Below are positions 810 to 53,286 of a DNA stretch of 64,000 nucleotides, piece after piece (the stretch's first letter is position 1; each line of letters starts with the position of its first letter). The notes below the pieces were generated by a model that had not been told where the DNA came from, searched no databases, and worked only from the letters and a program-made list of their open reading frames with translations. Origin of the DNA: Escherichia coli (GTDB lineage Bacteria > Pseudomonadota > Gammaproteobacteria > Enterobacterales > Enterobacteriaceae); NCBI RefSeq assembly GCF_050920415.1, contig NZ_CP169309.1. One strand, written 5' to 3'. The translations under genes and the position numbers were made by a program.

Positions 810-857
810 AATCCCGAAGAAGATGTTTACTCTTGCACCCTGCGATTCAACATTTCA

Positions 858-2231: not shown

Positions 2232-2261
2232 AATCTGTTCTCGTGGTCATCGACGCAAAAA

Positions 2262-2435: not shown

Positions 2436-2492
2436 ATTTCCCTCCGGTCATTGGGTGGACTCTTAAAGGGTAGACGCTGATATATAACAGGC

Positions 2493-2614
2493 AAAAAAAA
2501 GCCGACTCATCAAAGTCGGCGTCGTACGAATCAATTGTGCTATGCAGTAATTCAAAAAAGGAAGTAAGACAATATGGAGCGCAACGCCCATCGCTTGACG
2601 TTGCATTCACCTGC
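2493..2614 (-). ncRNA. fnrS: FnrS small RNA
   Basis: Minus strand reads GCAGGTGAATGCAACGTCAAGCGATGGGCG...GCCGACTTTGATGAGTCGGCTTTTTTTT, matching my recollection of FnrS including its terminator; zntB-dbpA intergenic position as in K-12. Confidence 0.85.
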
Positions 2615-2649
2615 AAGAGAGATATTGCCCTGAATGGGTAGAGAGTTTA

Positions 2650-2663
2650 TTGACTTCGCTCAA
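2650..2663 (-). promoter_or_regulatory. FNR-box-like palindrome upstream of fnrS
   Basis: TTGAGCGAAGTCAA versus consensus TTGAT-N4-ATCAA, centred about 42 bp upstream of the FnrS 5' end. Confidence 0.65.
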
Positions 2664-2709
2664 ACTTTGCGGCGTTTTTGTATACAGATAGTAGGGAAAA
2701 TTGCTGTTG

Positions 2710-3714
<1,005 letters not shown>

Positions 3715-3947
3715 TTATTTTGTAGTCTAGCCTTCTGGCCCTGTTACGCAACATCTCATCACCCCATTACCCTGAAATGATTAATAAAATTCTGTCTAAA
3801 TTGAATACAAAAAGCAAAATGCTTTTCCATATACAAACCGTGTGAAGTGTTAAATAGCGTCTATCATTATCAGAATTATCTGATCATATGACGTGGCTTT
3901 TTTGCGATCGGATAGCAACAAAAATTGATAAAAATAACGGGATCTCA

Positions 3948-5180: not shown

Positions 5181-5200
5181 GCCGCGGATGCGTCTCGAGA

Positions 5201-5764
5201 TCAACGACTGCGCTTAGCGTGGCGCTCCCAGTTTTCTTGCTTTGCCTGCGCCGTTTTACGTAGTGCGACGTAACACGCCCCGCTGCCGCCATGATGCGGT
5301 AGCGCGGTACAATATGCCTGGACATCATCAAATTCGGTCAACCAGCGCGCCACATAGCTGCGGACAATATTGGCATGCGATTTATCTTCCCGCCCTTTAC
5401 CATGAATAATCAGCACATTACGCAAACCATCCGCCAGGGCTTGTTGAATGAAACTGAACACCATTTTGCGGCACTCTTCCACCGGCTGGCGCAAAAGATT
5501 CAGGCTCGCCTGTTGCGGATATTTACCACTGCGCAGCTTATCCAGCACCCCATGTTGCAACCCTTCCCGCCGAAACTCCAGCGGCTGGCTTAGCGGAATG
5601 ATGTCGAGAAATCCGGTGGTGAGGAAATTATCAAGTTGCAGCGTGTCGATACGCTGCGGCGCACGTTGGTTACGCGTTGGATGCCAGTGGACATCTGTAG
5701 CACGTTTCAGCGGCTGGACATCTTCCATGGCGTCAAGAAACAGCGATTTGTCGTCAAGGTTCAT
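5201..5764 (-). CDS. smrA: Smr-domain endonuclease SmrA (YdaL)
   Basis: 187 aa; C-terminal Smr domain (LIIHGKG...); K-12 synteny. Confidence 0.9.
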   Translation of the reverse strand: MNLDDKSLFLDAMEDVQPLKRATDVHWHPTRNQRAPQRIDTLQLDNFLTTGFLDIIPLSQPLEFRREGLQHGVLDKLRSGKYPQQASLNLLRQPVEECRKMVFSFIQQALADGLRNVLIIHGKGREDKSHANIVRSYVARWLTEFDDVQAYCTALPHHGGSGACYVALRKTAQAKQENWERHAKRSR

Positions 5765-5991
5765 GTTACATCCTCCCGCAATTAAGAGCGCGATATGATA
5801 ACCAGACCGGGTCGGTCCAACAACGTATTACCCAAAATTCCAGTAATAAGTTCCAAATATTGCCGATATTTTAAGCAAAATGCTTATGCATGATTATTCA
5901 TTCACGATATTAATAATGTAACTTATATTTTCGTGAAATCTGTCACTGAAGAAAATTGGCAACTAAAGGTTAAAACCGTTATAACACAGTC

Positions 5992-6085
5992 ACCGGCGCA
6001 GAGGAGACCATGCCGGATTTAAGACGCGGATGCACTGCTGTGTGTACTGTAGAGTCTGGCGGATGTCGACAGACTCTATTTTTTT
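5992..6085 (+). ncRNA. mcaS: McaS (IsrA) small RNA
   Basis: ACCGGCGCAGAGGAGACCATGCCGGATTTAAGACGCGG...TAGAGTCTGGCGGATGTCGACAGACTCTATTTTTTT matches my recollection of McaS; smrA-abgR intergenic; TATAAC -10 just upstream. Confidence 0.8.
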
Positions 6086-6093
6086 ATGCAGTT

Positions 6094-7002
6094 TTAACTT
6101 TGCAGATAGCCGCATTCTCGCCGAAATTGCGTGATTAATGACGCGGTCAGTGGTGTCTGGCGACTATCACGCCGCTGAATCAAATAATAGGCCGCTTTCG
6201 GTAAAATTTCGATAACCGGCAACATCACCAGCCCCTGTCCGTGCAAGGGATCGCAGCCCATTTCTTCAGGTAGTATGCTGAGAAAATCGCTTTTTGCCAC
6301 CAGACTGATACAGGCTGAAAACGTCTCGCAGACTACGCCGACCTGTGGCGTTTGCGCCTGATCGTCAAGCAATTCACTCAACTGTTTGTAGTAGCTGCCG
6401 TGTGGCGTCGGCATTGTCCAGCTGTAGTCCAGTAACTGTTTGATCGAACGGGCACCAATGGCGGGATGTCCCGGGCGGCAAAAGATCGCGAATTGCTTTT
6501 CCAGTAATTTCTCAAAAGTAAATTCGTGGTCGTAGGGTCCCTGATAATAGGTATTGATGGTGAAATCCAGTTCTCCCTGGCGCAATTCATTAATCATCGA
6601 CACCAGTTGCCCTTCCATAATGCGTACTTTTACCTGCGGATGCTGCTGATGAAAACGAGATATGACAGCTGGCATCAGACTGCGGGAAATACTGGCCCCC
6701 ATGCCGATATTAATTTGCCCTGCCAGTTGCCCTTGTCGTTGGCGAATATCCTCTTGCGCTGCGCGCAGCTCTTCAAGAATAAGACTGGCGTGCTGATAAA
6801 AACTTTCGCCGGCATCAGTTAACGTCACGCCTTTACTACGGCGAAAAAAGAGTTGTGCCGCTAACCCTTCTTCCAGCTCCTGAATAGATTTACTCAGTGC
6901 CGGTTGCGACATATTCAACATTCGGCTCGCTCCGCGAATGCTGCCCTGACGAGCCACTTCAACAAAAGCCCGAATTTGATGAATTTTTACCTGAAAAGCC
7001 AT
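6094..7002 (-). CDS. abgR: LysR-family regulator AbgR
   Basis: 302 aa; N-terminal LysR HTH; divergent from abgA. Confidence 0.93.
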   Translation of the reverse strand: MAFQVKIHQIRAFVEVARQGSIRGASRMLNMSQPALSKSIQELEEGLAAQLFFRRSKGVTLTDAGESFYQHASLILEELRAAQEDIRQRQGQLAGQINIGMGASISRSLMPAVISRFHQQHPQVKVRIMEGQLVSMINELRQGELDFTINTYYQGPYDHEFTFEKLLEKQFAIFCRPGHPAIGARSIKQLLDYSWTMPTPHGSYYKQLSELLDDQAQTPQVGVVCETFSACISLVAKSDFLSILPEEMGCDPLHGQGLVMLPVIEILPKAAYYLIQRRDSRQTPLTASLITQFRRECGYLQS

Positions 7003-7177
7003 GACGCCACCGATAACCGTTATTTATCAGACCAAAGAAACTGGCATCTACTTTAATGCAGATGATTGTGTCAGGGTAATTTATGAACGGTTAAAACTGT
7101 GAAAAATCAGTTAGTGATAAGTAAAAACTATCACTACGTGAACCGGGTCACATTTTTTACTGATGACGGGAAAGGTT

Positions 7178-8488
7178 ATGGAGTCTTTGAATCAATTTGT
7201 TAATTCGCTTGCCCCAAGATTATCGCACTGGCGACGTGATTTTCATCGCTATGCAGAGTCTGGCTGGGTGGAATTCCGCACAGCCACCCTTGTTGCAGAA
7301 GAATTGCACCAGCTCGGCTATTCACTGGCGCTGGGCCGCGAAGTCGTTAATGAAAGTAGTCGGATGGGACTACCTGATGAACTCACTCTACAGCGCGAAT
7401 TCGAGCGCGCTCTTCAACAAGGTGCGTTAGCACAATGGATCGCGGCTTTTGAAGGTGGTTTCACTGGCATCGTCGCCACCCTGGATACCGGTCGCCCCGG
7501 TCCGGTGATGGCTTTCCGTGTCGATATGGACGCGCTGGATCTCAGTGAAGAACGGGATGTCAGCCATCGCCCCTACCGCGACGGTTTTGCGTCATGTAAC
7601 GCCGGAATGATGCATGCCTGTGGTCATGATGGACATACCGCTATTGGGCTTGGGCTGGCGCACACCCTTAAACAGTTCGAGTCCGGACTTCACGGCGTCA
7701 TCAAACTGATTTTTCAGCCTGCAGAGGAAGGTACGCGTGGCGCGCGGGCGATGGTCGATGCAGGTGTAGTGGATGATGTTGATTATTTTACTGCCGTGCA
7801 CATTGGCACTGGCGTACCTGCGGGCACCGTGGTGTGCGGCAGTGATAATTTTATGGCAACAACCAAATTTGACGCGCACTTCACTGGTACCGCCGCTCAC
7901 GCAGGCGCAAAACCACAAGACGGTCACAATGCCTTACTGGCGGCAGCACAAGCAACTCTTGCGCTGCATGGAATCGCCCCGCACAGCGAAGGGGCTTCCA
8001 GAGTAAACGTGGGCGTTATGCAGGCAGGAAGCGGTCGTAATGTGGTTCCTGCCTCGGCGTTGCTGAAAGTTGAAACTCGAGGGGTCAGCGACGTCATCAA
8101 TCAATATGTTTTTGACCGTGCACAACAAGCGATTCAGGGCGCAGCAGCCATGTATGGTGTCGGCGTTGAAACTCGGCTGATGGGTGCAGCTACCGCCAGT
8201 TCTCCTTCGCCGAAATGGGTCGCATGGTTACAAAGCCAGGCGGCTCAGGTCGCGGGGGTCAATCAGGCCATTGAACGTGTTGAAGCGCCTGCGGGTTCCG
8301 AAGATGCCACATTAATGATGGCCCGCGTGCAGCGACATCAAGGGCAAGCCTCCTACATGGTATTTGGCACACAGCTGGCGGCAGGTCATCACAACGAAAA
8401 ATTCGATTTTGACGAGCAGGTTCTCGCTATTACCGTCGAAACGCTGGCGCGCACCGCGCTTAATTTTCCCTGGACGCGAGGTATCTGA
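7178..8488 (+). CDS. abgA: p-aminobenzoyl-glutamate hydrolase subunit A (M20 peptidase)
   Basis: Track ORF 7163..8488; start at MESLNQFVNS gives 436 aa as in K-12. Confidence 0.92.
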   Translation: MESLNQFVNSLAPRLSHWRRDFHRYAESGWVEFRTATLVAEELHQLGYSLALGREVVNESSRMGLPDELTLQREFERALQQGALAQWIAAFEGGFTGIVATLDTGRPGPVMAFRVDMDALDLSEERDVSHRPYRDGFASCNAGMMHACGHDGHTAIGLGLAHTLKQFESGLHGVIKLIFQPAEEGTRGARAMVDAGVVDDVDYFTAVHIGTGVPAGTVVCGSDNFMATTKFDAHFTGTAAHAGAKPQDGHNALLAAAQATLALHGIAPHSEGASRVNVGVMQAGSGRNVVPASALLKVETRGVSDVINQYVFDRAQQAIQGAAAMYGVGVETRLMGAATASSPSPKWVAWLQSQAAQVAGVNQAIERVEAPAGSEDATLMMARVQRHQGQASYMVFGTQLAAGHHNEKFDFDEQVLAITVETLARTALNFPWTRGI

Positions 8489-9933
8489 TGCAGGAAATCT
8501 ATCGTTTTATCGACGATGCGATTGAAGCCGATCGCCAACGTTATACCGATATTGCTGATCAAATCTGGGATCATCCAGAAACACGTTTTGAAGAGTTCTG
8601 GTCAGCGGAACATCTGGCTTCGGCGCTGGAATCTGCAGGCTTCACCGTTACCCGCAACGTAGGCAATATCCCAAATGCCTTTATTGCTTCGTTTGGTCAA
8701 GGCAAACCGGTTATCGCCCTGCTGGGGGAATATGACGCCCTGGCAGGTTTAAGTCAGCAAGCAGGGTGCGCGCAACCTACATCCGCGACGCCCGGTGAAA
8801 ATGGTCACGGTTGCGGACACAATTTGCTCGGAACCGCCGCCTTTGCCGCAGCAATAGCCGTCAAGAAATGGCTGGAACAATATGGGCAAGGCGGCACGGT
8901 GCGCTTTTATGGTTGTCCTGGCGAAGAAGGCGGCTCGGGTAAAACGTTCATGGTCCGCGAGGGGGTATTTGATGATGTGGATGCGGCACTCACCTGGCAC
9001 CCGGAAGCCTTTGCCGGTATGTTCAATACCCGCACGCTGGCAAACATTCAGGCATCATGGCGCTTTAAAGGGATCGCAGCACATGCTGCAAATTCCCCTC
9101 ATTTGGGACGCAGCGCCCTTGATGCCGTAACGTTGATGACCACTGGCACCAACTTCCTCAACGAACATATTATTGAAAAAGCGCGCGTACACTATGCCAT
9201 CACAGAGAGCGGCGGGATCTCGCCCAACGTGGTCCAGGCGCAGGCAGAAGTGCTTTATCTTATCCGCGCCCCCGAAATGACCGACGTGCAGCATATTTAT
9301 GATCGGGTAGCCAAAATCGCCGAAGGTGCGGCATTGATGACCGAAACCACGGTTGAATGCCGCTTCGACAAAGCCTGTTCCAGTTATCTCCCTAATCGCA
9401 CCTTAGAAAAGGCCATGTACCAGGCTCTGTCCCATTTTGGAACCCCTGAATGGAAATCCGAAGAACTGGCTTTTGCGAAACAAATTCAGGCTACGCTCAC
9501 CCCCAACGATCGGCAAAACAGTCTGAATAATATCGCCGCAACCGGTGGAGAAAACGGCAAGGCTTTTGCACTACGTCATCGTGAAACGGTACTGGCGAAT
9601 GAAGTCGCTCCATATGCCGCCACCGATAACGTGCTTGCGGCATCAACTGATGTCGGCGACGTCAGTTGGAAACTGCCTGTTGCCCAGTGTTTAAGCCCCT
9701 GTTTCGCCGTCGGTACACCGCTACATACGTGGCAACTGGTTAGCCAGGGGCGAACGTCTATTGCTCATAAAGGAATGCTGCTGGCGGCGAAAACTATAGC
9801 AGCAACCACACTTAATCTCTTCATTGATTCAGGGCTATTGCAAGAATGCCAACAAGAGCATCAGCAAGTTACGGACACGCAACCGTATCACTGCCCTATC
9901 CCGAAAAACGTGACACCGTCACCTTTAAAATAA
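8488..9933 (+). CDS. abgB: p-aminobenzoyl-glutamate hydrolase subunit B (M20 peptidase)
   Basis: 481 aa; ATGA overlap with abgA stop. Confidence 0.92.
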   Translation: MQEIYRFIDDAIEADRQRYTDIADQIWDHPETRFEEFWSAEHLASALESAGFTVTRNVGNIPNAFIASFGQGKPVIALLGEYDALAGLSQQAGCAQPTSATPGENGHGCGHNLLGTAAFAAAIAVKKWLEQYGQGGTVRFYGCPGEEGGSGKTFMVREGVFDDVDAALTWHPEAFAGMFNTRTLANIQASWRFKGIAAHAANSPHLGRSALDAVTLMTTGTNFLNEHIIEKARVHYAITESGGISPNVVQAQAEVLYLIRAPEMTDVQHIYDRVAKIAEGAALMTETTVECRFDKACSSYLPNRTLEKAMYQALSHFGTPEWKSEELAFAKQIQATLTPNDRQNSLNNIAATGGENGKAFALRHRETVLANEVAPYAATDNVLAASTDVGDVSWKLPVAQCLSPCFAVGTPLHTWQLVSQGRTSIAHKGMLLAAKTIAATTLNLFIDSGLLQECQQEHQQVTDTQPYHCPIPKNVTPSPLK

Positions 9934-9969
9934 CAACAACAACGCAAACACAACAAACGAGGAATGCCC

Positions 9970-11496
9970 ATGAGTATGTCATCCATACCGTCGTCCTCCC
10001 AATCCGGGAAGCTCTATGGCTGGGTCGAAAGAATTGGTAACAAGGTTCCCCATCCTTTTTTGCTCTTTATCTATTTGATTATCGTACTCATGGTGACGAC
10101 GGCAATTTTGTCGGCCTTTGGCGTCAGTGCGAAAAACCCGACCGATGGTACGCCAGTGGTCGTGAAAAACCTGCTCAGTGTGGAAGGATTACACTGGTTT
10201 TTACCCAATGTGATTAAAAACTTTAGCGGTTTTGCCCCACTAGGCGCGATCCTGGCGCTGGTTTTAGGTGCCGGTCTGGCGGAGCGCGTCGGCTTACTGC
10301 CAGCGTTGATGGTTAAAATGGCATCGCATGTGAATGCTCGCTACGCCAGTTATATGGTGCTGTTTATTGCTTTTTTCAGCCACATTTCTTCCGATGCGGC
10401 GTTAGTGATCATGCCACCGATGGGGGCGCTGATTTTTCTGGCGGTGGGCAGGCATCCAGTTGCAGGTTTACTGGCCGCCATTGCAGGCGTCGGTTGCGGC
10501 TTTACAGCTAATTTACTGATTGTCACAACCGACGTGTTGCTGTCGGGGATCAGCACGGAGGCTGCGGCTGCGTTCAATCCGCAAATGCACGTCAGTGTAA
10601 TTGATAACTGGTATTTTATGGCCAGCTCCGTAGTCGTACTGACGGTTGTTGGCGGCCTGATAACCGACAAAATCATTGAGCCACGGTTAGGTCAATGGCA
10701 GGGAAACAGCGATGAGAAACTGCAGACATTGACCGAAAGTCAGCGTTTTGGTTTACGCATAGCAGGTGTCGTATCGCTACTTTTTATTGCTGCGATTGCG
10801 CTGATGGTGATCCCGGTAAACGGTATATTGCGCGATCCGATCAACCACACCGTGATGCCATCCCCCTTTATTAAAGGTATCGTGCCACTGATCATTCTCT
10901 TTTTCTTTGTGGTTTCGCTGGCTTATGGCATCGCTACCCGCACAATTCGACGTCAGGCGGATTTACCGCATTTAATGATTGAACCGATGAAAGAGATGGC
11001 GGGATTTATCGTGATGGTTTTTCCCCTCGCCCAGTTTGTCGCCATGTTTAACTGGAGCAACATGGGGAAATTCATCGCTGTGGGGTTGACCGATATACTC
11101 GAAAGTTCAGGGCTTAGCGGCATCCCGGCGTTTGTCGGTCTGGCGTTGCTTTCCTCTTTCTTATGCATGTTTATCGCCAGCGGTTCCGCAATCTGGTCGA
11201 TTCTGGCCCCCATTTTCGTACCGATGTTTATGCTACTTGGCTTTCACCCGGCATTTGCGCAAATCCTCTTTCGTATTGCCGACTCATCCGTATTGCCTTT
11301 AGCGCCGGTATCTCCTTTTGTTCCACTGTTTCTTGGATTCCTGCAACGCTACAAACCAGACGCGAAACTGGGTACTTACTATTCGTTAGTTTTGCCCTAT
11401 CCACTTATCTTTTTGGTGGTATGGCTGCTGATGTTGCTGGCGTGGTATCTTGTCGGTCTGCCGATAGGTCCGGGGATTTACCCTCGTTTGTCTTAA
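9970..11496 (+). CDS. abgT: p-aminobenzoyl-glutamate transporter AbgT
   Basis: Track ORF 9964..11496; start at MSMSSIPSS gives 508 aa; polytopic membrane protein. Confidence 0.92.
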
Positions 11497-11506
11497 GAGA
11501 GAACGG

Positions 11507-12022
11507 ATGCTGAGATTACTTGAAGAAAAAATTGCCACGCCACTAGGTCCACTGTGGGTGATTTGCGATGAGCAATTTCGCCTGCGGGCGGTTGAATGGG
11601 AAGAGTACAGCGAACGCATGGTGCAGTTGCTGGACATCCATTACCGCAAAGAAGGCTATGAACGCATTTCTGCCACCAACCCAGGTGGTTTAAGCGACAA
11701 GCTTCGTGAATATTTTGCCGGTAATCTTAGCATTATTGATACGCTTCCCACTGCCACGGGGGGGACGCCATTTCAGCGCGAAGTCTGGAAAACATTACGC
11801 ACAATCCCCTGCGGGCAGGTAATGCATTACGGCCAACTGGCTGAACAATTGGGCCGCCCCGGCGCGGCGCGTGCCGTAGGTGCGGCAAATGGATCGAATC
11901 CCATCAGCATTGTTGTGCCTTGTCATCGGGTCATTGGCAGAAACGGTACCATGACCGGATATGCAGGCGGAGTTCAGCGAAAAGAGTGGTTATTACGCCA
12001 CGAAGGTTATCTTTTGCTGTAA
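11507..12022 (+). CDS. ogt: O6-alkylguanine-DNA methyltransferase Ogt
   Basis: 171 aa; PCHRV active-site motif. Confidence 0.95.
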
Positions 12023-12216
12023 ACATTAAACAATTTGTGCCAGCTTGTTCACACTTTTATGTAAAGATACCCTTAACAACTTAAGGGTTTTCAAATAGAT
12101 AGACATATATTTACATCTAATATCGGAATTCTCTGCTGTTAAGGTTTGCTTAGACTTACTTGCTCCCTAAAAAGATGTTAAAATTGACAAATATCAATTA
12201 CGGCTTGAGCAGACCT

Positions 12217-12969
12217 ATGATCCCGGAAAAGCGAATTATACGGCGCATTCAGTCTGGCGGTTGTGCTATCCATTGCCAGGATTGCAGCATCAGCCAGCTT
12301 TGCATCCCGTTCACACTCAACGAACATGAGCTTGATCAGCTTGATAATATCATTGAGCGAAAGAAGCCTATTCAGAAAGGCCAGACGCTGTTTAAGGCTG
12401 GTGATGAACTTAAATCGCTTTATGCCATCCGCTCCGGTACGATTAAAAGTTATACCATTACTGAGCAAGGCGACGAGCAAATCACTGGTTTCCATTTAGC
12501 TGGTGACCTGGTGGGATTTGATGCAATCGGCAGCGGTCATCACCCGAGCTTCGCGCAGGCGCTGGAAACCTCGATGGTATGTGAAATTCCGTTCGAAACG
12601 CTGGACGATTTGTCCGGTAAAATGCCGAATCTGCGTCAGCAGATGATGCGTCTGATGAGCGGTGAAATCAAAGGCGATCAGGACATGATCCTGCTGTTGT
12701 CGAAGAAAAATGCCGAGGAACGTCTGGCTGCATTCATCTACAACCTGTCCCGTCGTTTTGCCCAACGCGGCTTCTCCCCTCGTGAATTCCGCCTGACGAT
12801 GACTCGTGGCGATATCGGTAACTATCTGGGCCTGACGGTAGAAACCATCAGCCGTCTGCTGGGTCGCTTCCAGAAAAGCGGCATGCTGGCAGTCAAAGGT
12901 AAATACATCACCATCGAAAATAACGATGCGCTGGCCCAGCTTGCTGGTCACACGCGTAACGTTGCCTGA
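12217..12969 (+). CDS. fnr: Anaerobic global regulator FNR
   Basis: Track ORF 12160..12969; start at [23 protein letters not shown] gives 250 aa; N-terminal Cys cluster and CRP-family HTH. Confidence 0.97.
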
Positions 12970-13120
12970 TTTTTCCGCATCACTCACTATCCTTCTGTCA
13001 TATCATTAAATTTTTCTGATTTATTGATCTGGCAGAAGGTTCATCACTGTTTCATTCACCAGATATGGGTTAATCTTTTAATTACAAACTGCGTTGACAG
13101 TTGTTGTAAGGAGACCCTGT

Positions 13121-14071
13121 ATGGCTATGTATCACAACATGCTCGTTGTTATCGATCCTAACCAGGACGACCAACCAGCATTGCGGCGAGCTGTTTATTT
13201 ACATCAACGGATTGGTGGCAAAATTAAAGCCTTTTTGCCGATCTATGACTTCTCATACGAAATGACCACCCTGCTCTCCCCGGACGAACGTACCGCTATG
13301 CGTCAGGGCGTCATCAGCCAACGAACAGCCTGGATCCACGAGCAGGCAAAATATTATCTCAATGCTGGCGTTCCCATTGAAATTAAAGTGGTCTGGCATA
13401 ACCGTCCATTCGAAGCCATCATTCAGGAAGTGATCAGCGGCGGGCACGATTTGGTGCTAAAAATGGCGCACCAACATGACCGTCTGGAAGCGGTGATTTT
13501 TACGCCAACGGACTGGCATCTGTTACGCAAATGCCCAAGCCCGGTGTGGATGGTGAAAGACCAGCCGTGGCCGGAAGGGGGTAAGGCGCTGGTGGCGGTG
13601 AATCTCGCCAGTGAAGAGCCGTACCATAATGCGCTCAATGAAAAACTGGTCAAAGAGACGATCGAACTGGCAGAACAAGTCAACCATACCGAAGTTCATC
13701 TGGTTGGCGCTTATCCGGTAACGCCAATTAATATCGCGATTGAACTGCCGGAATTTGACCCGAGCGTTTATAACGATGCCATTCGTGGGCAACATTTGCT
13801 GGCAATGAAAGCTCTGCGGCAGAAATTCGGCATTAATGAAAACATGACACACGTAGAAAAAGGTCTGCCCGAAGAGGTGATTCCTGATTTGGCGGAGCAC
13901 TTACAGGCGGGGATTGTGGTTCTGGGCACGGTCGGACGCACCGGTATTTCAGCAGCATTCCTTGGCAACACGGCGGAACAGGTGATTGATCATCTTCGCT
14001 GCGACCTGCTGGTCATTAAACCTGACCAGTATCAGACACCCGTTGAACTGGATGACGAAGAAGACGATTAA
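13121..14071 (+). CDS. uspE: Universal stress protein E (tandem Usp domains)
   Basis: Track ORF 13094..14071; start at [10 protein letters not shown] gives 316 aa. Confidence 0.93.
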
Positions 14072-14092
14072 CGACTCTTCAATAACTGACAA

Positions 14093-14118
14093 GGCCCGAG
14101 TTATCGGGCCTATTTTTT
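14093..14118 (+). terminator. Rho-independent terminator after uspE
   Basis: GGCCCGAgttaTCGGGCC hairpin followed by TATTTTTT. Confidence 0.75.
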
Positions 14119-14120
14119 AC

Positions 14121-14378
14121 TTACTGCTCTTCGCCGCCAAGGAAATAAATACCCAACGGGATTGCCAGCAACACAGTAAAGACCAGGCTATAAACAAAAA
14201 TCATCGATGACTGAATCACATACATTGATGTCGTCCACTCAGACAGCGGAATATTGTACTGTTCTATAACGCCGCCGATGGTCGCGCGAGTCACAACCGA
14301 CGCCGCAATAATGAAAACCGCCAACAAACCAAAGAGAAATTTCTTCCCTTTCGCTGACTTCAGTTTCGCCATAATCAT
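14121..14378 (-). CDS. ynaJ: Small inner-membrane protein YnaJ
   Basis: 85 aa, two TM segments; recognised sequence and synteny. Confidence 0.88.
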   Translation of the reverse strand: MIMAKLKSAKGKKFLFGLLAVFIIAASVVTRATIGGVIEQYNIPLSEWTTSMYVIQSSMIFVYSLVFTVLLAIPLGIYFLGGEEQ

Positions 14379-14621
14379 GATGTAATCCTTGTGCAGACAA
14401 ATTTCTTGTTACCTAAACGTAACAATACCATGACATTTCACCGTTGTCTGCTCTGAAAACCTCACCTCTTAGCTGGATTTACAATCAACGCATTGATTAG
14501 TTAGCTAATGTTGCTACTTCCTTCCCTGACTATTGATGATCTGAATGAATTGTCGCGGTAAAATAGCCCCGCCAGGGGTTTCCGGCATGACGACAATTAT
14601 CTGGAGGAGCCTGATAAAACA

Positions 14622-15653
14622 ATGATCGCTGAACTGTTTACAAATAATGCGCTTAATCTGGTCATTATTTTCGGTAGCTGCGCAGCATTGATTCTGATGA
14701 GCTTTTGGTTTCGCCGCGGAAATCGTAAAAGAAAAGGATTTTTATTCCATGCGGTGCAATTTTTCATCTACACCATAATTATCAGTGCTGTTGGTAGCAT
14801 CATTAATTATGTTATAGAAAACTACAAACTCCAATTTATCACTCCAGGCGTTATCGATTTTATCTGTACGTCCCTGATTGCTGTTATTCTGACGATTAAG
14901 TTATTTCTGCTGATTAATCAGTTTGAAAAACAGCAGATTAAAAAAGGTCGTGATATCACCAGTGCGCGGATTATGTCGCGTATCATCAAAATCACCATTA
15001 TTGTGGTACTTGTTTTGCTTTATGGCGAACATTTCGGCATGAGCCTTTCTGGCTTGCTGACCTTTGGTGGTATTGGTGGTCTGGCTGTTGGTATGGCCGG
15101 TAAAGATATTCTGAGTAACTTCTTTTCCGGGATTATGCTCTATTTCGACCGTCCTTTCAGTATTGGCGACTGGATCCGTTCACCGGACAGAAATATCGAA
15201 GGTACAGTAGCGGAAATTGGCTGGCGAATTACCAAAATTACGACCTTTGATAATCGTCCGTTATACGTCCCGAACTCGCTGTTTTCGTCTATCAGCGTAG
15301 AAAACCCGGGGCGAATGACCAACCGACGTATTACCACGACAATCGGTTTACGTTATGAGGATGCGGCAAAAGTGGGAGCCATTGTCGAAGCCGTACGTGA
15401 GATGCTTAAAAATCACCCGGCCATCGACCAGCGACAAACCTTACTGGTTTATTTCAACCAGTTTGCTGACTCGTCATTGAATATTATGGTTTATTGCTTT
15501 ACCAAAACCACAGTATGGGCTGAATGGCTTGCCGCCCAGCAGGATGTTTATTTGAAGATTATCGATATTGTACAGTCACACGGCGCGGATTTCGCGTTCC
15601 CAAGCCAGACGCTGTATATGGATAACATTACACCACCAGACCAGGGTCGTTAA
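14622..15653 (+). CDS. ynaI: MscS-family mechanosensitive channel YnaI
   Basis: 343 aa; N-terminal TM helices plus MscS beta domain; synteny. Confidence 0.92.
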
Positions 15654-25773: not shown

Positions 25774-26511
25774 TCAACCTACCTTGCTTGATCCTGGAAA
25801 ACATGAGATCGGCAATGGATTTGGACGCGGGAAACGCAAGCGACAACCGCTTAGGCGGTGGCTGCACCTGTCTAATGTTGGATCGTTTGTCGGCTCGTCT
25901 TTGTCTGTAGCAACTGGCCCGCCAGAGTACGCACAGCCATCACCTCTATACTGCCACTGGCAAACGTCAGCAAGAATGGTGCGGCCTGGGATCACCGCCT
26001 TATCTGCATCAATTGGCGTTGACAACTCATATTGCACCTGATCCGCTGTTTCTTCACTCATGGCCTCTATAACGTAAAAGGACACCGCCTCAATAGATGG
26101 ATCAGCGTCAGGATTGCCATTTGGGAAGTTAACAGCGTCAAGGTATTTCACTTCCACCTGGCGGCGCGTAACCTTCATGCCTCGAAGGTCGTTATAGTCG
26201 GTATTCATCCCGGTAATGAGTCCGCCAATGTTTGCTACAGCCATTTGAGGGCGAGAATAAACTCCTTCGTTTTTCATTTCGAAGCCAGTAGCCTCGATTG
26301 GATAGCTGTTATAAGCCACGCCCTTCCAGATGACCGGACCGTAATAACCATTCGCGCCGGAATGGAAGCGGACAACCTCGCCACCAAGGGGAGTAAGGTC
26401 CAATTCGAACAAGTCAATGATTGCGCCGACTCCCGCATCGACGGAATCAATAATCATCTCTGTAGGTATATTGCGCATTTTATCACCTTGTTGTTTTGTG
26501 ATCTGCATCAC
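25774..26511 (-). CDS. Minor tail protein (lambda L family)
   Basis: 245 aa; KYLDAVNFPNGNPDADP and CxWxYRGDGCxYSG regions closely resemble lambda gpL. Confidence 0.88.
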   Translation of the reverse strand: MMQITKQQGDKMRNIPTEMIIDSVDAGVGAIIDLFELDLTPLGGEVVRFHSGANGYYGPVIWKGVAYNSYPIEATGFEMKNEGVYSRPQMAVANIGGLITGMNTDYNDLRGMKVTRRQVEVKYLDAVNFPNGNPDADPSIEAVSFYVIEAMSEETADQVQYELSTPIDADKAVIPGRTILADVCQWQYRGDGCAYSGGPVATDKDEPTNDPTLDRCSHRLSGCRLRFPRPNPLPISCFPGSSKVG

Positions 26512-26617
26512 ACCGTGAATGCCAAAATGGATTGATAGCGTGATTTACAATATGTATATTTTACTCAAACGAACGGTAGTAAACAAAATGGCACAGTTTG
26601 GAACAGGATAGGACACT

Positions 26618-26776
26618 ATGAGATCCGCAAAATACGCAGAAAAAGTTTTCGTTGAAGTGAAAGGCGACATGAAAAAATTTATGGATGTTCTTATCAAAGA
26701 GATGGGAAAACCGTTCCATATAGCCGAACGTCAGTATTACGCTTGCAAGGCTAATAGCTACAACAGATACGCATGA
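26618..26776 (+). CDS. Moron small ORF (52 aa)
   Basis: My translation: MRSAKYAEKVFVEVKGDMKKFMDVLIKEMGKPFHIAERQYYACKANSYNRYA; AGGATAGG SD; ordinary composition, unlike the junk-like antisense track ORFs. Confidence 0.45.
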   Translation: MRSAKYAEKVFVEVKGDMKKFMDVLIKEMGKPFHIAERQYYACKANSYNRYA

Positions 26777-26798
26777 CAATAAACACAAAGGTAACACT

Positions 26799-26891
26799 AT
26801 GCAAAAATATCGTCTTGATGTGTGGATGGCTGGAAATAAAGATTGGGAAGGTTTCGGATTATTTGACAGCCGCGAACTGGCTAACGACTAA
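26799..26891 (+). CDS. Moron small ORF (30 aa), possibly the 5' piece of a longer ORF broken by in-frame TAA codons
   Basis: MQKYRLDVWMAGNKDWEGFGLFDSRELAND; same frame continues to 26934 and into 26964..27152. Confidence 0.3.
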   Translation: MQKYRLDVWMAGNKDWEGFGLFDSRELAND

Positions 26892-26972
26892 GGGGAAAAA
26901 CTTGTTAACTTCTTTGGACGGGCCAGGGAGTTTTAAGTAACCCCGGTACAGATAGAAAATAAGGTGGAAGAG

Positions 26973-27152
26973 ATGAAATACGATATTGATAACGACGCTT
27001 GCTTTAAACAAAACTTTGCGGATTCTATGGATCAGTCTTGCCCTGAAATACACGCACACGGTTTCCCGGCAGATAATCCAGACATGAAACGCGAATACGA
27101 AAAAGCGGCGAAAGATTTCTGCATCGACAATCTGGGCGCATTCGATAGATAA
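26973..27152 (+). CDS. Moron small ORF (59 aa, acidic, Cys-containing)
   Basis: Track ORF 26964..27152; ATG at 26973 preceded by AAGGTGG. Confidence 0.5.
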   Translation: MKYDIDNDACFKQNFADSMDQSCPEIHAHGFPADNPDMKREYEKAAKDFCIDNLGAFDR

Positions 27153-27161
27153 GGCGGCAAT

Positions 27162-27410
27162 ATGGCGAGGCGAAAACATAGCGATTATATGTACACGCTG
27201 AAGCAGGCCGCCCGCCTTATCGGTTATCATGAACACGAATTTATTGATTTGCTGATTGAGCGCGGGATTTTATACCAGGTCTGTTTAACGCTGTACCCGA
27301 AAGCGAAATACTTGCAGGAAAAGTTATTCATCATCATGACGGATGAAAACCAGGTTAATCACTCATTCGTCACTGCCAAAGGCGTTAATTATCTGCGCGA
27401 TAACTTATAG
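27162..27410 (+). CDS. KilA-C/ANT-domain-like protein (82 aa)
   Basis: YTLKQAARLIG...YPKAKYLQEKLF...VTAKGVNYLRDNL resembles the phage antirepressor KilAC domain pattern; AAGGCGG SD. Confidence 0.5.
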   Translation: MARRKHSDYMYTLKQAARLIGYHEHEFIDLLIERGILYQVCLTLYPKAKYLQEKLFIIMTDENQVNHSFVTAKGVNYLRDNL

Positions 27411-27420
27411 GTGACAGATT

Positions 27421-27537
27421 ATGAAAATAGAAGTTTTGGCGCTAATAGTAATGGGATTGATAGTATTTGGTGTTCATGCTGTAGATCTGGACTGGAAAAC
27501 GATAGCAGAAAATATAGCGTTAATGGAAATGGAATAA
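27421..27537 (+). CDS. 38-aa small membrane/secreted peptide
   Basis: MKIEVLALIVMGLIVFGVHAVDLDWKTIAENIALMEME; AGGTGA SD; last gene of the plus-strand cassette. Confidence 0.4.
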   Translation: MKIEVLALIVMGLIVFGVHAVDLDWKTIAENIALMEME

Positions 27538-27543
27538 TAATAA

Positions 27544-27560
27544 CCCCGCTTCGCGCGGGG
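27544..27560. terminator. Bidirectional hairpin closing the plus-strand cassette and the minus-strand gpM unit
   Basis: CCCCGCttcgcGCGGGG; the minus strand continues TTATTATTATT. Confidence 0.6.
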
Positions 27561-27566
27561 TCGTGT

Positions 27567-27752
27567 TTATACGCCATCAAGTAAAAATAAAACTTCCTTG
27601 CCTTCTCTTGATCTGCATCCTACATAACCGTCACCCATGTCATGAAGATACCAGGTCTCACCATTATCAGCTTTTACAGTAAGATCGTTGATTTCATAGT
27701 CGTCAAACAATGTAAAAGCGCCCGTGCGGTCCACTACACAAATAGCATACAT
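27567..27752 (-). CDS. Hypothetical protein (61 aa)
   Basis: Track ORF 27567..27785; start at MYAICVV preceded by GGAGGTG. Confidence 0.5.
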   Translation of the reverse strand: MYAICVVDRTGAFTLFDDYEINDLTVKADNGETWYLHDMGDGYVGCRSREGKEVLFLLDGV

Positions 27753-27765
27753 ATTGACACCTCCA

Positions 27766-28119
27766 TTAATTGACAACTTGCTCAAAAGTTGCGTTTAGCG
27801 TGTACAAAGACCCGTCTTTAGTCATGCTCCATCGGCGGCAAACAAAAAGCCTTTGCACGTTATCCATCGACGGCGACCAGTAAAAAGCCTCGACCGCGCC
27901 GCGCGCCCTCAAGAATGCTTCCGCCTGGATTGCTACGTTTTCACCATCACCACATCCGGCGCTACTGCCTTTAAATACCAGGGTGTAGCTATCAAGCAAT
28001 GGATTGATACCTTTTACCTGTCTTTGCTCATAACCATCGCCCAGCTTAACAACGGATACGTCCGGCTCCCTGGTCACGCTGTAGCTTCGTTGTGGCGTCC
28101 ATCTGAACACTTCCGGCAT
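27766..28119 (-). CDS. Minor tail protein (lambda M family)
   Basis: 117 aa; FRW...KLGDGYEQR...FEQVVN parallels lambda gpM, including the identical C-terminal FEQVVN. Confidence 0.88.
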   Translation of the reverse strand: MPEVFRWTPQRSYSVTREPDVSVVKLGDGYEQRQVKGINPLLDSYTLVFKGSSAGCGDGENVAIQAEAFLRARGAVEAFYWSPSMDNVQRLFVCRRWSMTKDGSLYTLNATFEQVVN

Positions 28120-28308
28120 AAAACCCCCATAAGTTACATTTTGTATATATCTTTACGCGCTTCTACGCGAAAAATAAGATCTTCATCACAATGATTATAG
28201 CTAGTTTACAAAATGGCTTCACATAGCACACAACAAGATGTATATAAAAAGCAAGAAGAAAAGCAGTACCAACGAAGGAGGCCCAAAAATGAAACGCTAT
28301 GAGTAGTA

Positions 28309-28443
28309 ATGCTAAACAACGCATTCGAACAAGTGGAAATAGCAATCGTTAAGGGTTTCGACGACGCATTTAAATACGGTCAATTCATGATTAATGCAAA
28401 AGAAGATGAATACCGTGATTTCTTCCTGAAGGCTCTTAATTAA
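28309..28443 (+). CDS. Moron small ORF (44 aa; possible antitoxin-like partner)
   Basis: MLNNAFEQVEIAIVKGFDDAFKYGQFMINAKEDEYRDFFLKALN; preceded by a 5-codon mini-ORF (28289..28306) with AAGGAGG SD and a TAGTAATG stop-start arrangement. Confidence 0.35.
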   Translation: MLNNAFEQVEIAIVKGFDDAFKYGQFMINAKEDEYRDFFLKALN

Positions 28444-28462
28444 GAATAATCGGGGGTGAGCT

Positions 28463-28717
28463 ATGAAACTGGTAGCGATTGACAAAAACCTGAAAGTACA
28501 GAAAAACGCACAGGACCGGATTATCAAGAAAGGTAAGGAACTGCTTAAAGCATTTTTGAAGAAAGAGGCGCGCCCCAAAAAGTTACGCGATGGTTATGGC
28601 TTTAAATTCGATATCAATCATGACTGGCGGCTGTTCAGCGAAGACCTCAAAGTCTGGTTAATAATCGATCACCTGGAATATAACAGGCACTGCGGGGTTA
28701 AAGGGGCGCATAAGTGA
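28463..28717 (+). CDS. Moron ORF (84 aa), weak RelE/ParE-like C-terminal pattern
   Basis: Track ORF; GGGGGTGAG SD; KLRDGYGFKFDINHDWRLFSEDLKVWLIIDHLEYNRH loosely resembles the RelE/ParE toxin core. Confidence 0.5.
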   Translation: MKLVAIDKNLKVQKNAQDRIIKKGKELLKAFLKKEARPKKLRDGYGFKFDINHDWRLFSEDLKVWLIIDHLEYNRHCGVKGAHK

Positions 28718-28725
28718 GGCGGGAT

Positions 28726-28818
28726 ATGGAGGACGATAAATTCACCTGGCGGGAGATCTGGAATATTTGGTTGGTGATGTTTTCTCGCAGCTATATAGCC
28801 AGAAACGGAAGATTGTAA
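28726..28818 (+). CDS. Moron small ORF (30 aa, Trp-rich)
   Basis: MEDDKFTWREIWNIWLVMFSRSYIARNGRL; GAGG SD. Confidence 0.3.
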   Translation: MEDDKFTWREIWNIWLVMFSRSYIARNGRL

Positions 28819-28836
28819 TTTGCGGAGGAAAATAAA

Positions 28837-29013
28837 ATGAAAAACCCGGCAAATAAAAGCAATGTAAAACGTATAGCCTGGATCGTGAAATGGATGGATA
28901 GTAAAGGAGACACATATACTGAACCATTTTTCAAACATACTGATGCAGTATTTGCAAGAAGCGTAAGAGGCGGGAAAATTGAAAGAGGATATACAAGTTT
29001 TGAGAATAACTAA
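28837..29013 (+). CDS. Moron small ORF (58 aa)
   Basis: MKNPANKSNVKRIAWIVKWMDSKGDTYTEPFFKHTDAVFARSVRGGKIERGYTSFENN; GGAGG SD; followed by a terminator. Confidence 0.45.
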   Translation: MKNPANKSNVKRIAWIVKWMDSKGDTYTEPFFKHTDAVFARSVRGGKIERGYTSFENN

Positions 29014-29020
29014 AATATAA

Positions 29021-29044
29021 CCCCGGCATTGTACCGGGGTTTTG
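29021..29044. terminator. Hairpin terminator shared by the plus-strand cassette and the tape measure gene
   Basis: CCCCGGcattgtaCCGGGG followed by TTTTG on the plus strand. Confidence 0.7.
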
Positions 29045-29045
29045 T

Positions 29046-31385
29046 TTATTTGCGGCGCGGTTGCAATATTCCCCCTGGTCTTTGTGATTCCCTTGTTATC
29101 ATTTTCATTGCCACACGTTCCATTGTTTGTTCAAGTCTGCGGCTATCTTCGTCGCTAAATCCGTTTGTGGTCTGAATGTTAATATTGACAGGCATACTAA
29201 TACCGCCGCCACCAATATCACGACCAGGTATAACCCTGCCATTCTCGCCAGGAATCATGTATTGATTGCCGTTAGACGTCTGGAATAGCTCCGGCCTGTT
29301 GTGTTCCCCTACACGGTACATGTTGCCACCAATGACGCTACCACCATTAAAGCGCCCGCCGCCGAAAATGGATGTTGCCAGTGACATGATCGCAGTAAGC
29401 GCCGCCGAGCCAGCCGCCGCCCAGCTACCGCCAGTTGATGCCGCTGTCGCTGCCGCCGCCGGGGCCGCCGCCGCAGCAATGCTTCCCTGAGCGGCAACCG
29501 CGCTTGCCGTTGTGCTGGCCTGCGTGGCCTTGCTTTGTGTCTCCATCATGATTTGATCTGCTATCCAGTTGGCAGCTATGTCCGAAAGTCTGTTACCGAT
29601 ATTCCCAAGTATATTGCTTCCTAAGTTAGCAAAAACATCACTTAATGATTGAGTGCCGTTTAGCAGGCCAACAAGGGCGTTACTCATACCACCTTTAAGG
29701 CCATTAACGCAATCACCGATCAGGCCGTTAGTATCGCTTTGCGCCTGCCATTGCTCCCATTTTAGATCGCGAATCTGTTGCTCATAGGCCAACAATTCCT
29801 GTTTCTGTTGCGCTTCGGTAGCGCCCAGGTCTATAAGCATTTGCTTACGGACGGCCCATTCATTTTGCGCCTGCTGGATGGGGTCAACTTCGCCTTTTAG
29901 CTGGTCCATCGGGCTAACTATTTGCGACCATTTATCACGCAATTCATCTACCGGAATTTGTGCTAACTCTTCTTTTAGCTCCTTGCCGATTCCCTTTTGA
30001 GCGGCGCGGTATTCAAGGAGTGTAATTTTCCCCTGGGCGAATGCAGCATCAATGGCCTTGCCGTTCTCTAACGCTTTGCGCATGGCGGCTGCGTCTTTGT
30101 TGTACTGGTCAGAAACGCTTATGCCTTTGTCACCAAGCCGATCAGCTTCAGTTTTCTTCTCTTTTTTCTGTTTTTTCGGCTTGTCTACTGGCTTGTCGAA
30201 TCCGGTAATAGTTCCGTCATTGGCGGCATTCTGTTCACTTTTCCTTGCTTCTTCTGTAGCCTGGATTGCAGCGGTCAGATCATCCTGTAATTGCATGACC
30301 TTACCAACGGTCTTACCATATTTCTTCTCATAGTTGCTGTCGTATTCGTCGGTTTGTTCTCCTACCACCTCTTTCATCCATTTGTAGCCGTCCATTAGCG
30401 CTTTGATTGGTGTCACCATTGCGATGATCTTCTCTGCCACCTCACCAGCCTTGATTCCGACATCCTCAAATATATCAATGAATTCGCTGCCAGCCGTCTT
30501 CAGGGTGATAAAGCAGGTTTTAGCGAAATCAGCACCATCACCTAAAGCCTTAACACCTTTCGTGACAAGATCGATACCAGCAACAACCGTATCGGATACA
30601 CCAAAAAGATCGTCCAACTGTTCGACAAGCCCCATAACTTCGACTTTAAGCTCATTCAGGGCCATACCGGATGTGCGCGGCAACTGCGCGAACTTCTCGT
30701 TTGTTTCCTGCGTAGCCGCCTGGATTGCGTTAACCATCCTTTCTGCCGTGATCTTACCGTCCAGCATTTCGGCGCGGAATTGGCCCATAGATAACCCCAT
30801 CTGGCGGGCCATTGTCTGTACGATGGTCGGGGTGTTCTCTAACAGGCTATTGAATTCTTCAGCACGAAGCACGCCGCCGTCGATAGACTGACGGAATTGA
30901 CGCATTGAGTTTGACATCTGCTCCGCAGATGCGCCGCCCAACGCCCCCATTTTCTGAATCGTACCTACCAGGTTAAGCAATTGCCCTTCAGTGGCGGACG
31001 TGTTCTTCAGGGAGATAGCCAGGCCTTGCCACAGATCCCCGGTATCCTTCATGCTTTGGCCTGTTTCTTTTGATATTGCTTTCAGGCCGTCGAAAACCCG
31101 CCCGGCGGACTCCGCATCGCCCGTAAGCATTTTGATTTTTACGCGAAGCATTTTTGCTTGCTCCGCCATATCCATAAATTGGCGCACAGCCTCCGCAGCA
31201 ATTAGCAGATGGATAACCCTGGTTAGTGCTTTGATTGATGTCTTCAGTGTGTTTACCTGGCGATCTGCCTGTTTAGCACCGCGCTCTATACGGTCAAAGG
31301 CCTGGTCTGCCTGTCGTTGTGCTACAAGAAGTTGTCCTGTTTTTGCGTCAACTTCGTAATAAATTGTGCCTACACTGGTAGCCAT
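29046..31385 (-). CDS. Tail tape measure protein
   Basis: 779 aa; long alpha-helical Ala/Gln-rich sequence; sits between the tail chaperone and gpM. Confidence 0.88.
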   Translation of the reverse strand: MATSVGTIYYEVDAKTGQLLVAQRQADQAFDRIERGAKQADRQVNTLKTSIKALTRVIHLLIAAEAVRQFMDMAEQAKMLRVKIKMLTGDAESAGRVFDGLKAISKETGQSMKDTGDLWQGLAISLKNTSATEGQLLNLVGTIQKMGALGGASAEQMSNSMRQFRQSIDGGVLRAEEFNSLLENTPTIVQTMARQMGLSMGQFRAEMLDGKITAERMVNAIQAATQETNEKFAQLPRTSGMALNELKVEVMGLVEQLDDLFGVSDTVVAGIDLVTKGVKALGDGADFAKTCFITLKTAGSEFIDIFEDVGIKAGEVAEKIIAMVTPIKALMDGYKWMKEVVGEQTDEYDSNYEKKYGKTVGKVMQLQDDLTAAIQATEEARKSEQNAANDGTITGFDKPVDKPKKQKKEKKTEADRLGDKGISVSDQYNKDAAAMRKALENGKAIDAAFAQGKITLLEYRAAQKGIGKELKEELAQIPVDELRDKWSQIVSPMDQLKGEVDPIQQAQNEWAVRKQMLIDLGATEAQQKQELLAYEQQIRDLKWEQWQAQSDTNGLIGDCVNGLKGGMSNALVGLLNGTQSLSDVFANLGSNILGNIGNRLSDIAANWIADQIMMETQSKATQASTTASAVAAQGSIAAAAAPAAAATAASTGGSWAAAGSAALTAIMSLATSIFGGGRFNGGSVIGGNMYRVGEHNRPELFQTSNGNQYMIPGENGRVIPGRDIGGGGISMPVNINIQTTNGFSDEDSRRLEQTMERVAMKMITRESQRPGGILQPRRK

Positions 31386-47733: not shown

Positions 47734-47815
47734 TTTTCTGCCCTCCGCATCGTTCTCTCTTCAGCTTCTTTATAACAAAATGGCACTGCCGAAACAATGC
47801 CATTTTGTAAACTTT

Positions 47816-47828
47816 GGGGGGGGGGGGG
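47816..47828. repeat. Homopolymeric G13 tract (C13 on the gene strand)
   Basis: Thirteen consecutive G counted directly; intergenic. Confidence 0.95.
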
Positions 47829-47841
47829 TAGATCACGCTTT

Positions 47842-53149: not shown

Positions 53150-53270
53150 AATGCTCTCTCCTTTTCAGGTGATTTCTACGCATTTCAGCGCTGCCGGATT
53201 TTTAAAGAGCATTTCGTTTGCTTGAAGTATACAAAATGGATGCACCTGAACAAGGCAAAAAGCGCCATTA

Positions 53271-53286
53271 TGTGACCAAAATCACA
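53271..53286. promoter_or_regulatory. Perfect CRP-consensus-core palindrome TGTGA-N6-TCACA
   Basis: TGTGAccaaaaTCACA read directly; lies between two inverted copies of the 14-bp element. Confidence 0.5.

Follow-up and report, generated by a model that had tools for sequence, protein, structure and literature searches.

Described systems closest to the L-M cassette

Between tail genes L and M of a prophage in an Escherichia coli chromosome (NCBI RefSeq assembly GCF_050920415.1, contig NZ_CP169309.1) lies a small operon that faces against the tail genes. We call it the L-M cassette, and we analyzed it within a stretch of 64,000 nucleotides, hereafter the window, to which all coordinates refer. 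Its closest described counterpart is the gp74-gp71 cassette of phage mEp021 (MH706966, mEp021_74 to _71), which has the same position between L and M and the same orientation, and which has further counterparts in mEp554, mEp010, MagusPhagus, and E. coli prophages. The locus of the window shares with that of mEp021 the promoter, the copies of a repeated motif, the bidirectional terminator, gene B, gene C (95% identical), the adjacent gene of 61 amino acids (aa), and the immunity type. It differs by a rarer 52-aa allele of gene A, a short gene D of 38 aa, and two nonsense codons in B, and it lacks the extra gene gp72 of mEp021. The cassette is a commonplace of a known phage family and has been annotated there before; the window holds a new and slightly decayed copy of it.

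Other small transcription units among the late genes of temperate phages offer looser parallels. The immI region of P22 (mnt-arc-ant) is an antirepressor unit embedded in late genes, and the HK97 gp15 element, located in the tail region, is an example of a moron. Like the L-M cassette, P22 immI is a separately regulated small operon in a structural region that encodes an antirepressor-class protein. However, its orientation relative to late transcription differs, and its Ant protein is large and has dedicated repressors, Mnt and Arc, none of which is encoded in the cassette of the window. Lambdoid morons likewise have their own promoter-gene-terminator unit between late genes, a deviant composition, and a history of horizontal gene exchange (review PMC3594210), whereas the cassette is multi-gene, is oppositely oriented, and has B and C fixed across its group. 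Finally, the product of gene C belongs to the KilAC family, together with P1 KilA, Listeria AriS, Staphylococcus aureus phi11 Gp07, and CreP of Acinetobacter baylyi. Most members of this family have an N-terminal DNA-binding domain, whereas C has none and is isolated in sequence. CreP consists, as C does, of KilAC alone, but has 103 aa against the 82 aa of C.

We favor, tentatively, the reading that the locus is an accessory operon, conserved in the mEp021/mEpimmI group and transcribed independently, which would produce a host-directed C protein and would be co-regulated with the early genes of the phage. Host RNA polymerase would initiate at a near-consensus sigma-70 promoter (Pc1), 54 bp from the start codon of L, and the transcript would cover the four tightly packed genes A, B, C, and D. 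It would then halt at a hairpin that would also end the converging transcript of M and E, and that late transcripts would cross by a phage Q-like antitermination.

Conservation and layout of the cassette

The prophage begins at around 15.7 kb of the window, and its only matches are in the mEp021/mEpimmI group, Nus-dependent siphophages that are not lambdoid and are reported to be as frequent as lambdoid phages among the Nus-dependent coliphages of human faeces. Comparisons with mEp021, mEp010, mEp013, mEp044, mEp515, mEp554, and MagusPhagus gave 57-70% coverage at 82-87% identity, and the gene order is that of the sequenced mEpimmI members (n=7). The CI-like repressor Rep (61089-61736, minus strand, with HTH_3 and Peptidase_S24 domains) is 97.7% identical to Rep021 of mEp021, the repressor function of which was examined by infection assays (PMC11893012). 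The prophage has thus the two marks of mEpimmI membership, the Rep repressor of immunity I and the syntenic tail module. This exact prophage is absent from the complete E. coli genomes of the collection that we searched, where the best matches over the cassette have 87-91% identity. The left 15 kb of the window are E. coli chromosome, and the abgT-abgB-abgA stretch adjoining the prophage is 99.9% identical to that of E. coli strain N96 (window 1-15600).

A reverse-facing cassette between L and M was found in all 12 relatives, which are mEp554, mEp021, MagusPhagus, mEp010, and eight E. coli prophages or contigs (the 11 used in the main comparison, plus L012). The order in the window is promoter, A (52 aa), B (broken), C (82 aa), D (38 aa), bidirectional terminator, E (on the minus strand), and M. 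Across the relatives it is promoter, A, B, an optional gene X, C, an optional gene Y, D or another tiny hydrophobic open reading frame (ORF), terminator, E, and M. Gene X (75-93 aa) is present in mEp021, N25, and UMNK88, and gene Y (67 aa) in N25 and Ec127. The fixed parts are therefore B, C, E, the promoter, and the terminator, and the exchangeable ones are A, X, Y, and D.

These comparisons change the gene map proposed by the first-pass annotation, which had described five small plus-strand ORFs with Shine-Dalgarno sequences. The ORFs exist, at 26618-26776 (52 aa), 26799-26891 (30 aa), 26973-27152 (59 aa), 27162-27410 (82 aa), and 27421-27537 (38 aa), and each is preceded at 5-7 nucleotides (nt) by a Shine-Dalgarno of the AGGA/AAGG/AGGTG type. 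However, those of 30 and 59 aa are pieces of the single gene B, so there are four genes and not five. Similarly, the 1 kb between L and M does hold a plus-strand cassette, but the conserved minus-strand gene E lies there as well. The idea that the slot is a variable hotspot holds in part among the relatives compared: A comes in two alleles and X, Y, and D vary, but B, C, and the unit as a whole are present in 12 of 12. A "phage antirepressor protein KilAC-like" is also a core gene in a manual pangenome of 48 mEpimmI genomes (PMC11893012). With B and C present in every one of the 12 relatives and a KilAC-like gene in the core set, to speak of "inserted" cargo is misleading.

GC content is 39-45% in the cassette and 45-52% in the tail genes on either side, and both skews, GC and AT, change sign. 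It resembles a moron in its own predicted promoter and terminator and in a base composition unlike that of its neighbors. The locus could be a classical moron, i.e. constitutive, lysogen-expressed cargo of benefit to the host (for example for exclusion or defence) and independent of the lytic programme, which we regard as possible but rather unlikely. The strength of the predicted promoter, the terminator, the lower GC, and the optional X, Y, and D speak for it, whereas the fixation of B and C in all relatives and the core status of the KilAC-like gene speak against it. Defence or exclusion functions, which the first-pass annotation had suggested, find no echo in the databases: PADLOC-DB returned no defence-system match for A, B, C, D, or E at E <= 0.1, and NCBIfam none for any product of the L-M cassette.

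The plus strand is the coding strand of the cassette

We compared the window with 11 relatives, using the ratio of nonsynonymous to synonymous changes (pN/pS) and the distribution of substitutions over the three codon positions. The plus-strand genes have pN/pS between 0.05 and 0.45, which indicates selection. Gene B has 83/52/194 substitutions at first, second, and third positions (pN/pS 0.12-0.45), and gene C has 72/20/173 (0.05-0.10). The minus-strand gene E follows the same pattern in its own frame, with 32/36/186 (0.07-0.17). In the 125-aa minus-strand ORF at 26859-27236 the counts are 253/58/118 and pN/pS is 0.75-1.23; the excess is at its first position, which we take to be the wobble position in the frame of the plus strand. 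It could be argued that the minus-strand ORFs at 26561-26797 and 26859-27236 are the real genes, with the plus-strand ORFs arising by chance, since the window and 4 of the 11 relatives have an uninterrupted ORF of 106-125 aa there. It is however closed in the other 7, and the ORF at 26859-27236 matches no protein family in Pfam. The codon-position pattern and pN/pS refute these ORFs as genuine genes, and we give this alternative practically no weight. Judged by their substitutions, they are antisense by-products, as the first-pass annotation had supposed.

The cassette promoter shares a motif with the early promoter

The upstream boundary of the cassette depends on the start of tail gene L (25774..26478, minus strand, 234 aa; Pfam Phage_tail_L, E = 9.9e-72), which is annotated with 705 nt in the relatives. 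That annotation and an AAGGTGA Shine-Dalgarno place the start at the ATG at 26478, while the longest mechanical ORF extends to a GTG at 26511. With the start at 26478, an intergenic region of 139 nt remains for the cassette promoter. The predicted promoter Pc1 lies there (26522..26560, plus strand, scan score 10/12), with a -35 box TTGATA (26532-26537), a spacer of 17 nt, and a -10 box TATATT (26555-26560). In 12 of 12 genomes the -10 box is identical and the -35 box is TTGATA or TTGATC, in the midst of variable flanks.

Three copies of a repeated motif accompany Pc1. A palindromic copy, TACAATATGTAT (26546-26557), overlies the spacer and the -10 box. A second copy, ACAAAATGG (26583..26591, plus strand), falls in the untranslated leader, at about +15 to +25 relative to the predicted start, and is invariant in 12 of 12 genomes while its flanks vary. 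A third, degenerate copy, CCAAAATGG (26522-26530), sits one base from the -35 box. The first-pass annotation had noticed copies of a 14-bp element at 26546 and 26583 and took them to bound the cassette. The element is indeed over-represented, but both copies are at the 5' promoter end, 37 bp apart. That the cassette has its own regulation through the repeated element, as also proposed there, is likely.

In the window, TACAWWWTGTAT has 9 matches against 0.11 expected, ACAAAATGG 10 against 1.09, and TACAAAATG 10 against 1.08, the latter all within the prophage. The motif family is over-represented about 10-fold or more and lies mostly between genes or in promoters, among them sites on either side of the repressor gene. 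The sites are at 19855, 26522-26591, 28135-28245, 31427, 36241, 47775-47808, 53231-53303, 56846, 60288, 60967-60998, 61774-61822, and 63764. An arrangement in which the motif is followed after 1-2 nt by a -35 box recurs at Pc1 (promoter score 10/12), at Pc2, the promoter of a second cassette described below (9/12), at an early promoter (10/12), and at a site at 47.8 kb (8/12). At random positions, a promoter score of at least 9 at that offset has P = 0.006. The early promoter, a strong one (TTGACT-17-TATATT), immediately follows the repressor gene, precedes an N-like antiterminator gene, and is also found in mEp021. Motif variants occur as well where the repressor gene and the gp14 homologue diverge, in the region that separates them, and a word comparison found no word other than the motif that is common to these regulatory regions.

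We regard the motif as a candidate site for an operator or activator in the mEpimmI group, one that the 2025 mEpimmI paper does not describe. We consider it about an even call whether it is the site of a phage regulator, in the simplest case the CI-like Rep or its antagonist, such that the cassette would be switched with the early genes rather than expressed constitutively. Rep is about 96-98% identical in all relatives, so there is no covariation by which the motif could be tied to it. The motif-plus-promoter architecture that Pc1 shares with the early promoter beside the repressor gene points, if anything, to early-gene co-regulation.

The 47.8-kb site has features of its own. At 47773-47829 there are two inverted copies of ACAAAATGGCA around 25 bp apart, followed by a run of 13 G, and on the minus strand the motif precedes TTGTTT-17-TATAAA. 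The homopolymer could be a slippage-prone tract or a weakness of the assembly.

Gene B is disrupted in the window

Gene B (26799..27152, plus strand, 117 codons, phrog_38567) is the shared frame of the 30-aa and 59-aa ORFs. The translation of 26799-27152 contains two in-frame TAA codons and aligns end to end with the intact 116-117-aa proteins of the relatives. Each stop is a single-base change: the TAA at 26889-26891 replaces an ancestral GAA, and the one at 26934-26936 an ancestral AAA. The lost GAA encodes a glutamate that is almost invariant in the family. The gene is intact in 12 of 12 relatives and full length in nearly all of 59 protein clusters. B is a pseudogene in the copy of the window, where it is presumably inactive.

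The 59-aa ORF (26973..27152, plus strand) corresponds to the C-terminal half of B and matches positions 61-115 of phrog_38567. Its ATG follows a AAGGTGGA Shine-Dalgarno internal to the gene. Around this start (window 26964-26975), the string (A/G)AG GTG GAA GAN ATG has identical synonymous sites in 13 of 13 genomes: GTG GAA and ATG are invariant, and the preceding codon is AAG or GAG. The internal methionine (Met59) is nearly invariant and lies where the folded N-terminal domain ends. Translation from this internal start may yield the C-terminal half as a separate product; as 15 of the 46 comparable codons of B are equally invariant, the conservation of the internal Shine-Dalgarno is suggestive rather than significant. 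The structural model of B has a confident N-terminal domain of 50 residues with a beta-beta-alpha-beta topology, and a C-terminal half that is poorly modelled yet conserved in sequence. B has no informative match and no assignable function.

Gene C encodes a stand-alone KilAC protein

Gene C (27162..27410, plus strand) encodes 82 aa that form a stand-alone KilAC domain (ANT, PF03374), which agrees with the resemblance noted in the first-pass annotation. The Pfam match is above the gathering score (E = 1.8e-7; 31.9 bits for a threshold of 25.3) and aligns residues 7-82 with positions 20-105 of the 108 of the model. C also matches phrog_5689 and, weakly, phrog_63 "anti-repressor Ant", and it is present in 12 of 12 relatives. 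In tblastn searches of phage genomes, it is 30-40% identical to the C-terminal domains of Rha/Ant proteins from phages of Vibrio, Cronobacter, and Hafnia and from Stx phages, with E-values down to 2e-6. Its own family is very narrow and forms seven clusters at 90% identity. A search of 1.84 billion representatives turned up a single genuine distant relative, namely the C-terminus of an Ant-type protein of 264 aa, and an exact peptide pattern scan of one-genome-per-species contigs found none. A search of PDB sequences with the C profile gave a non-significant match only (E = 0.12). The AF2 model is of moderate quality (pLDDT 73.7), and fold searches with it returned weak resemblances to helix-turn-helix proteins of the MerR/Xis type. 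The KilAC domain spans residues 7-82, and we found no second domain, those of the AntA/AntB, Bro-N, Rha, and KilA-N families included.

Studies of related proteins associate isolated KilAC domains with effects on the host. In Listeria AriS, the KilAC domain alone suppresses the SOS response, and the phage-directed activity resides in the N-terminal domain (PMC9043618). CreP, which is a KilAC-only protein, is bacteriostatic and stops cell division (bioRxiv 10.1101/2024.01.05.574328). The KilA-type domain of phi11 Gp07 keeps the growth inhibition seen in E. coli when Gp07 is overexpressed (PMC5944126). By analogy, C might contact a regulator protein of the host or of the phage, with RecA/SOS or cell division as the process affected, and so condition the cell during lytic growth. 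We put this role forward as a possibility that is still somewhat doubtful.

A classical antirepressor role for C is less likely than such a host-directed contact. In that scenario, C would inactivate the CI-like Rep by binding it and would thereby provide a route to induction without RecA-mediated cleavage. PF03374 proteins are annotated as antirepressors, and C has the weak match to phrog_63. The ant gene of P22 immI sits inside the late region, which also counts in favor of this scenario. Moreover, UV is reported not to induce mEpimmI lysogens, and the Ala-Gly cleavage site to be missing from Rep (PMC11893012). However, C lacks the N-terminal AntA/Bro/Rha/KilA-N domain, and in AriS it is the N-terminal domain that acts on phages whereas KilAC acts on the host SOS response. 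Inspection by eye revealed no LexA-box-like sequence at Pc1, and if Rep represses Pc1, then C is not the primary trigger. The bare KilAC domain, together with SOS inhibition and division arrest as the activities of isolated KilAC domains, makes the classical role doubtful, and we regard the scenario as improbable. Antirepression was among the possible functions named in the first-pass annotation.

Exchangeable genes, shared terminator, and gene E

Gene A (26618..26776, plus strand, 52 aa) occupies the first position of the cassette, which is swappable. Two unrelated alleles occur there: among the 11 compared relatives only O157:H7 LSU61 shares that of the window (99% identity), and the others have an unrelated gene of 51-57 aa, phrog_29559. 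Homologues of the allele of the window, with 78-98% identity and pN/pS of 0.16-0.20 relative to it, are found in unrelated phage contexts (L013:3001-3162, L015:3001-3159, L016:2886-3044), such as after a resolvase gene near a capsid gene, or in an operon of small genes after a tape-measure gene. In these loci the nucleotide homology is confined to the ORF, which together with the unrelated contexts indicates that A is a single-gene mobile module. We infer that A is interchangeable cargo, and its exchange between genomes and presence in unrelated phages are also what a moron would lead one to expect. A separate idea, that the common A allele is a paralogue of the N-terminal domain of B, was rejected (hhalign probability 1.9%).

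Gene D (27421..27537, plus strand) encodes a 38-aa peptide with an N-terminal hydrophobic helix (MKIEVLALIVMGLIVFGVHA...), in agreement with the small hydrophobic peptide of the first-pass annotation, and is probably a small membrane peptide. It has an ATG in the window and in 6 of the 11 relatives, has lost the start codon in two, and is replaced or absent in three. Its pN/pS of 0.14-0.66 gives it weaker coding support than B, C, and E have.

The cassette ends at a bidirectional intrinsic terminator (27543..27561, both strands) that it has in common with gene E. The hairpin, which had been recognized in the first reading of the sequence, scores as a terminator on both strands, with folding energies of -18.3 and -17.6 kcal/mol (z about -2.6). 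It is kept in 11 of 12 relatives and is annotated as a terminator on both strands in mEp021. On its other side lies gene E (27567..27752, minus strand, 61 aa, phrog_3249), preceded by a GGAGGTG Shine-Dalgarno. It belongs to the tail operon, downstream of M, and is found, under strong purifying selection, in the window and in each of the 11 relatives compared with it (12 genomes), whereas lambda has no counterpart of it between M and L. Gene M itself (27766..28119, minus strand) matches Pfam Phage_min_tail with E = 6.3e-28. The minus-strand tail genes of the prophage comprise J, I, K, L, M, and the tape-measure gene.

The presence of a convergent unit and its bidirectional terminator amid the genes of the tail operon raises the question of whether the unit acts through its RNA, by regulatory RNA or transcriptional interference, the convergent transcription and the shared terminator gating the distal genes L-K-I-J and the peptides being secondary. 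The arrangement is kept in all relatives, and a second unit of this kind lies between M and the tape-measure gene H. Nevertheless, purifying selection clearly acts on the proteins that A, B, C, and E encode, and an Rfam scan of 26000-29500 found no RNA family at E <= 1. In addition, the plus-strand transcript would stop before M and so would be antisense only to read-through late RNA. We find this explanation very improbable.

A sister cassette between M and the tape-measure gene

The second reverse-facing cassette (28120-29045) lies between M and the tape-measure gene. Its promoter Pc2, ACAAAATGG-C-TTCACA-17-TATATA (28208-28246), is conserved in 13 genomes. The cassette encodes an 84-aa ParE-like toxin (PF24732, E = 5.5e-11) between ORFs of 44 and 58 aa, and it closes with a bidirectional hairpin (29019-29041). 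The gene content of this cassette is variable, and one relative has a 310-aa CapR/T5orf172 gene there. The first gene has a deletion of 1 nt (at 28290-28311) relative to 11 of 12 aligned relatives (ATGAAACGCTATG-AGTAG), which cuts an ORF of 51 aa and leaves the 44-aa ORF that begins at an internal ATG (28309). A defective module may result if the truncated protein is the antitoxin that partners the ParE-like toxin.

Several observations weigh against an accessory operon co-regulated with the early genes. Gene B was lost here, and hence was dispensable enough. The sister cassette has a ParE-like toxin module, of a kind that lysogens normally express. In the early promoter, the motif is upstream of the -35 box, off the core promoter, which also fits an activator site or an UP-like element. 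Some motif matches fall on start codons (35120, 61722), so that part of the enrichment may reflect the context of translation starts.

Two of these points bear on the classical moron introduced above. The toxin gene would suit it, and so would the distribution of lesions: the two stops in B and the deletion in the sister cassette both affect accessory cassettes, and among the flanking tail genes that we read, we noticed none that was broken. This suggests that accessory genes are dispensable, or perhaps costly, in this lysogen, which would fit a cost of lysogenic expression. The constitutive moron is disfavored by the architecture of Pc1, which is that of an early promoter that must stay silent in lysogens. 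We retain, as our tentative preference, a conserved accessory operon with a host-directed C protein and early-gene co-regulation.

Implications for mEpimmI phages

The present analysis corrects the gene map of the L-M slot of mEpimmI phages. The motif-plus-promoter architecture links both cassettes embedded in the tail genes to the early promoter beside the repressor gene. A bolder version of this link, which we see as a long shot, is that the two cassettes are outposts of the early circuit rather than passive cargo, switched via ACAAAATGG/TACAWWWTGTAT by the regulator that also governs the promoters around the repressor gene. C would then be the control element that these phages otherwise lack, as either a minimal antirepressor of the non-cleavable Rep or an inhibitor of RecA/SOS. 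If true, it would explain how mEpimmI prophages, which are not UV-inducible, decide on induction.

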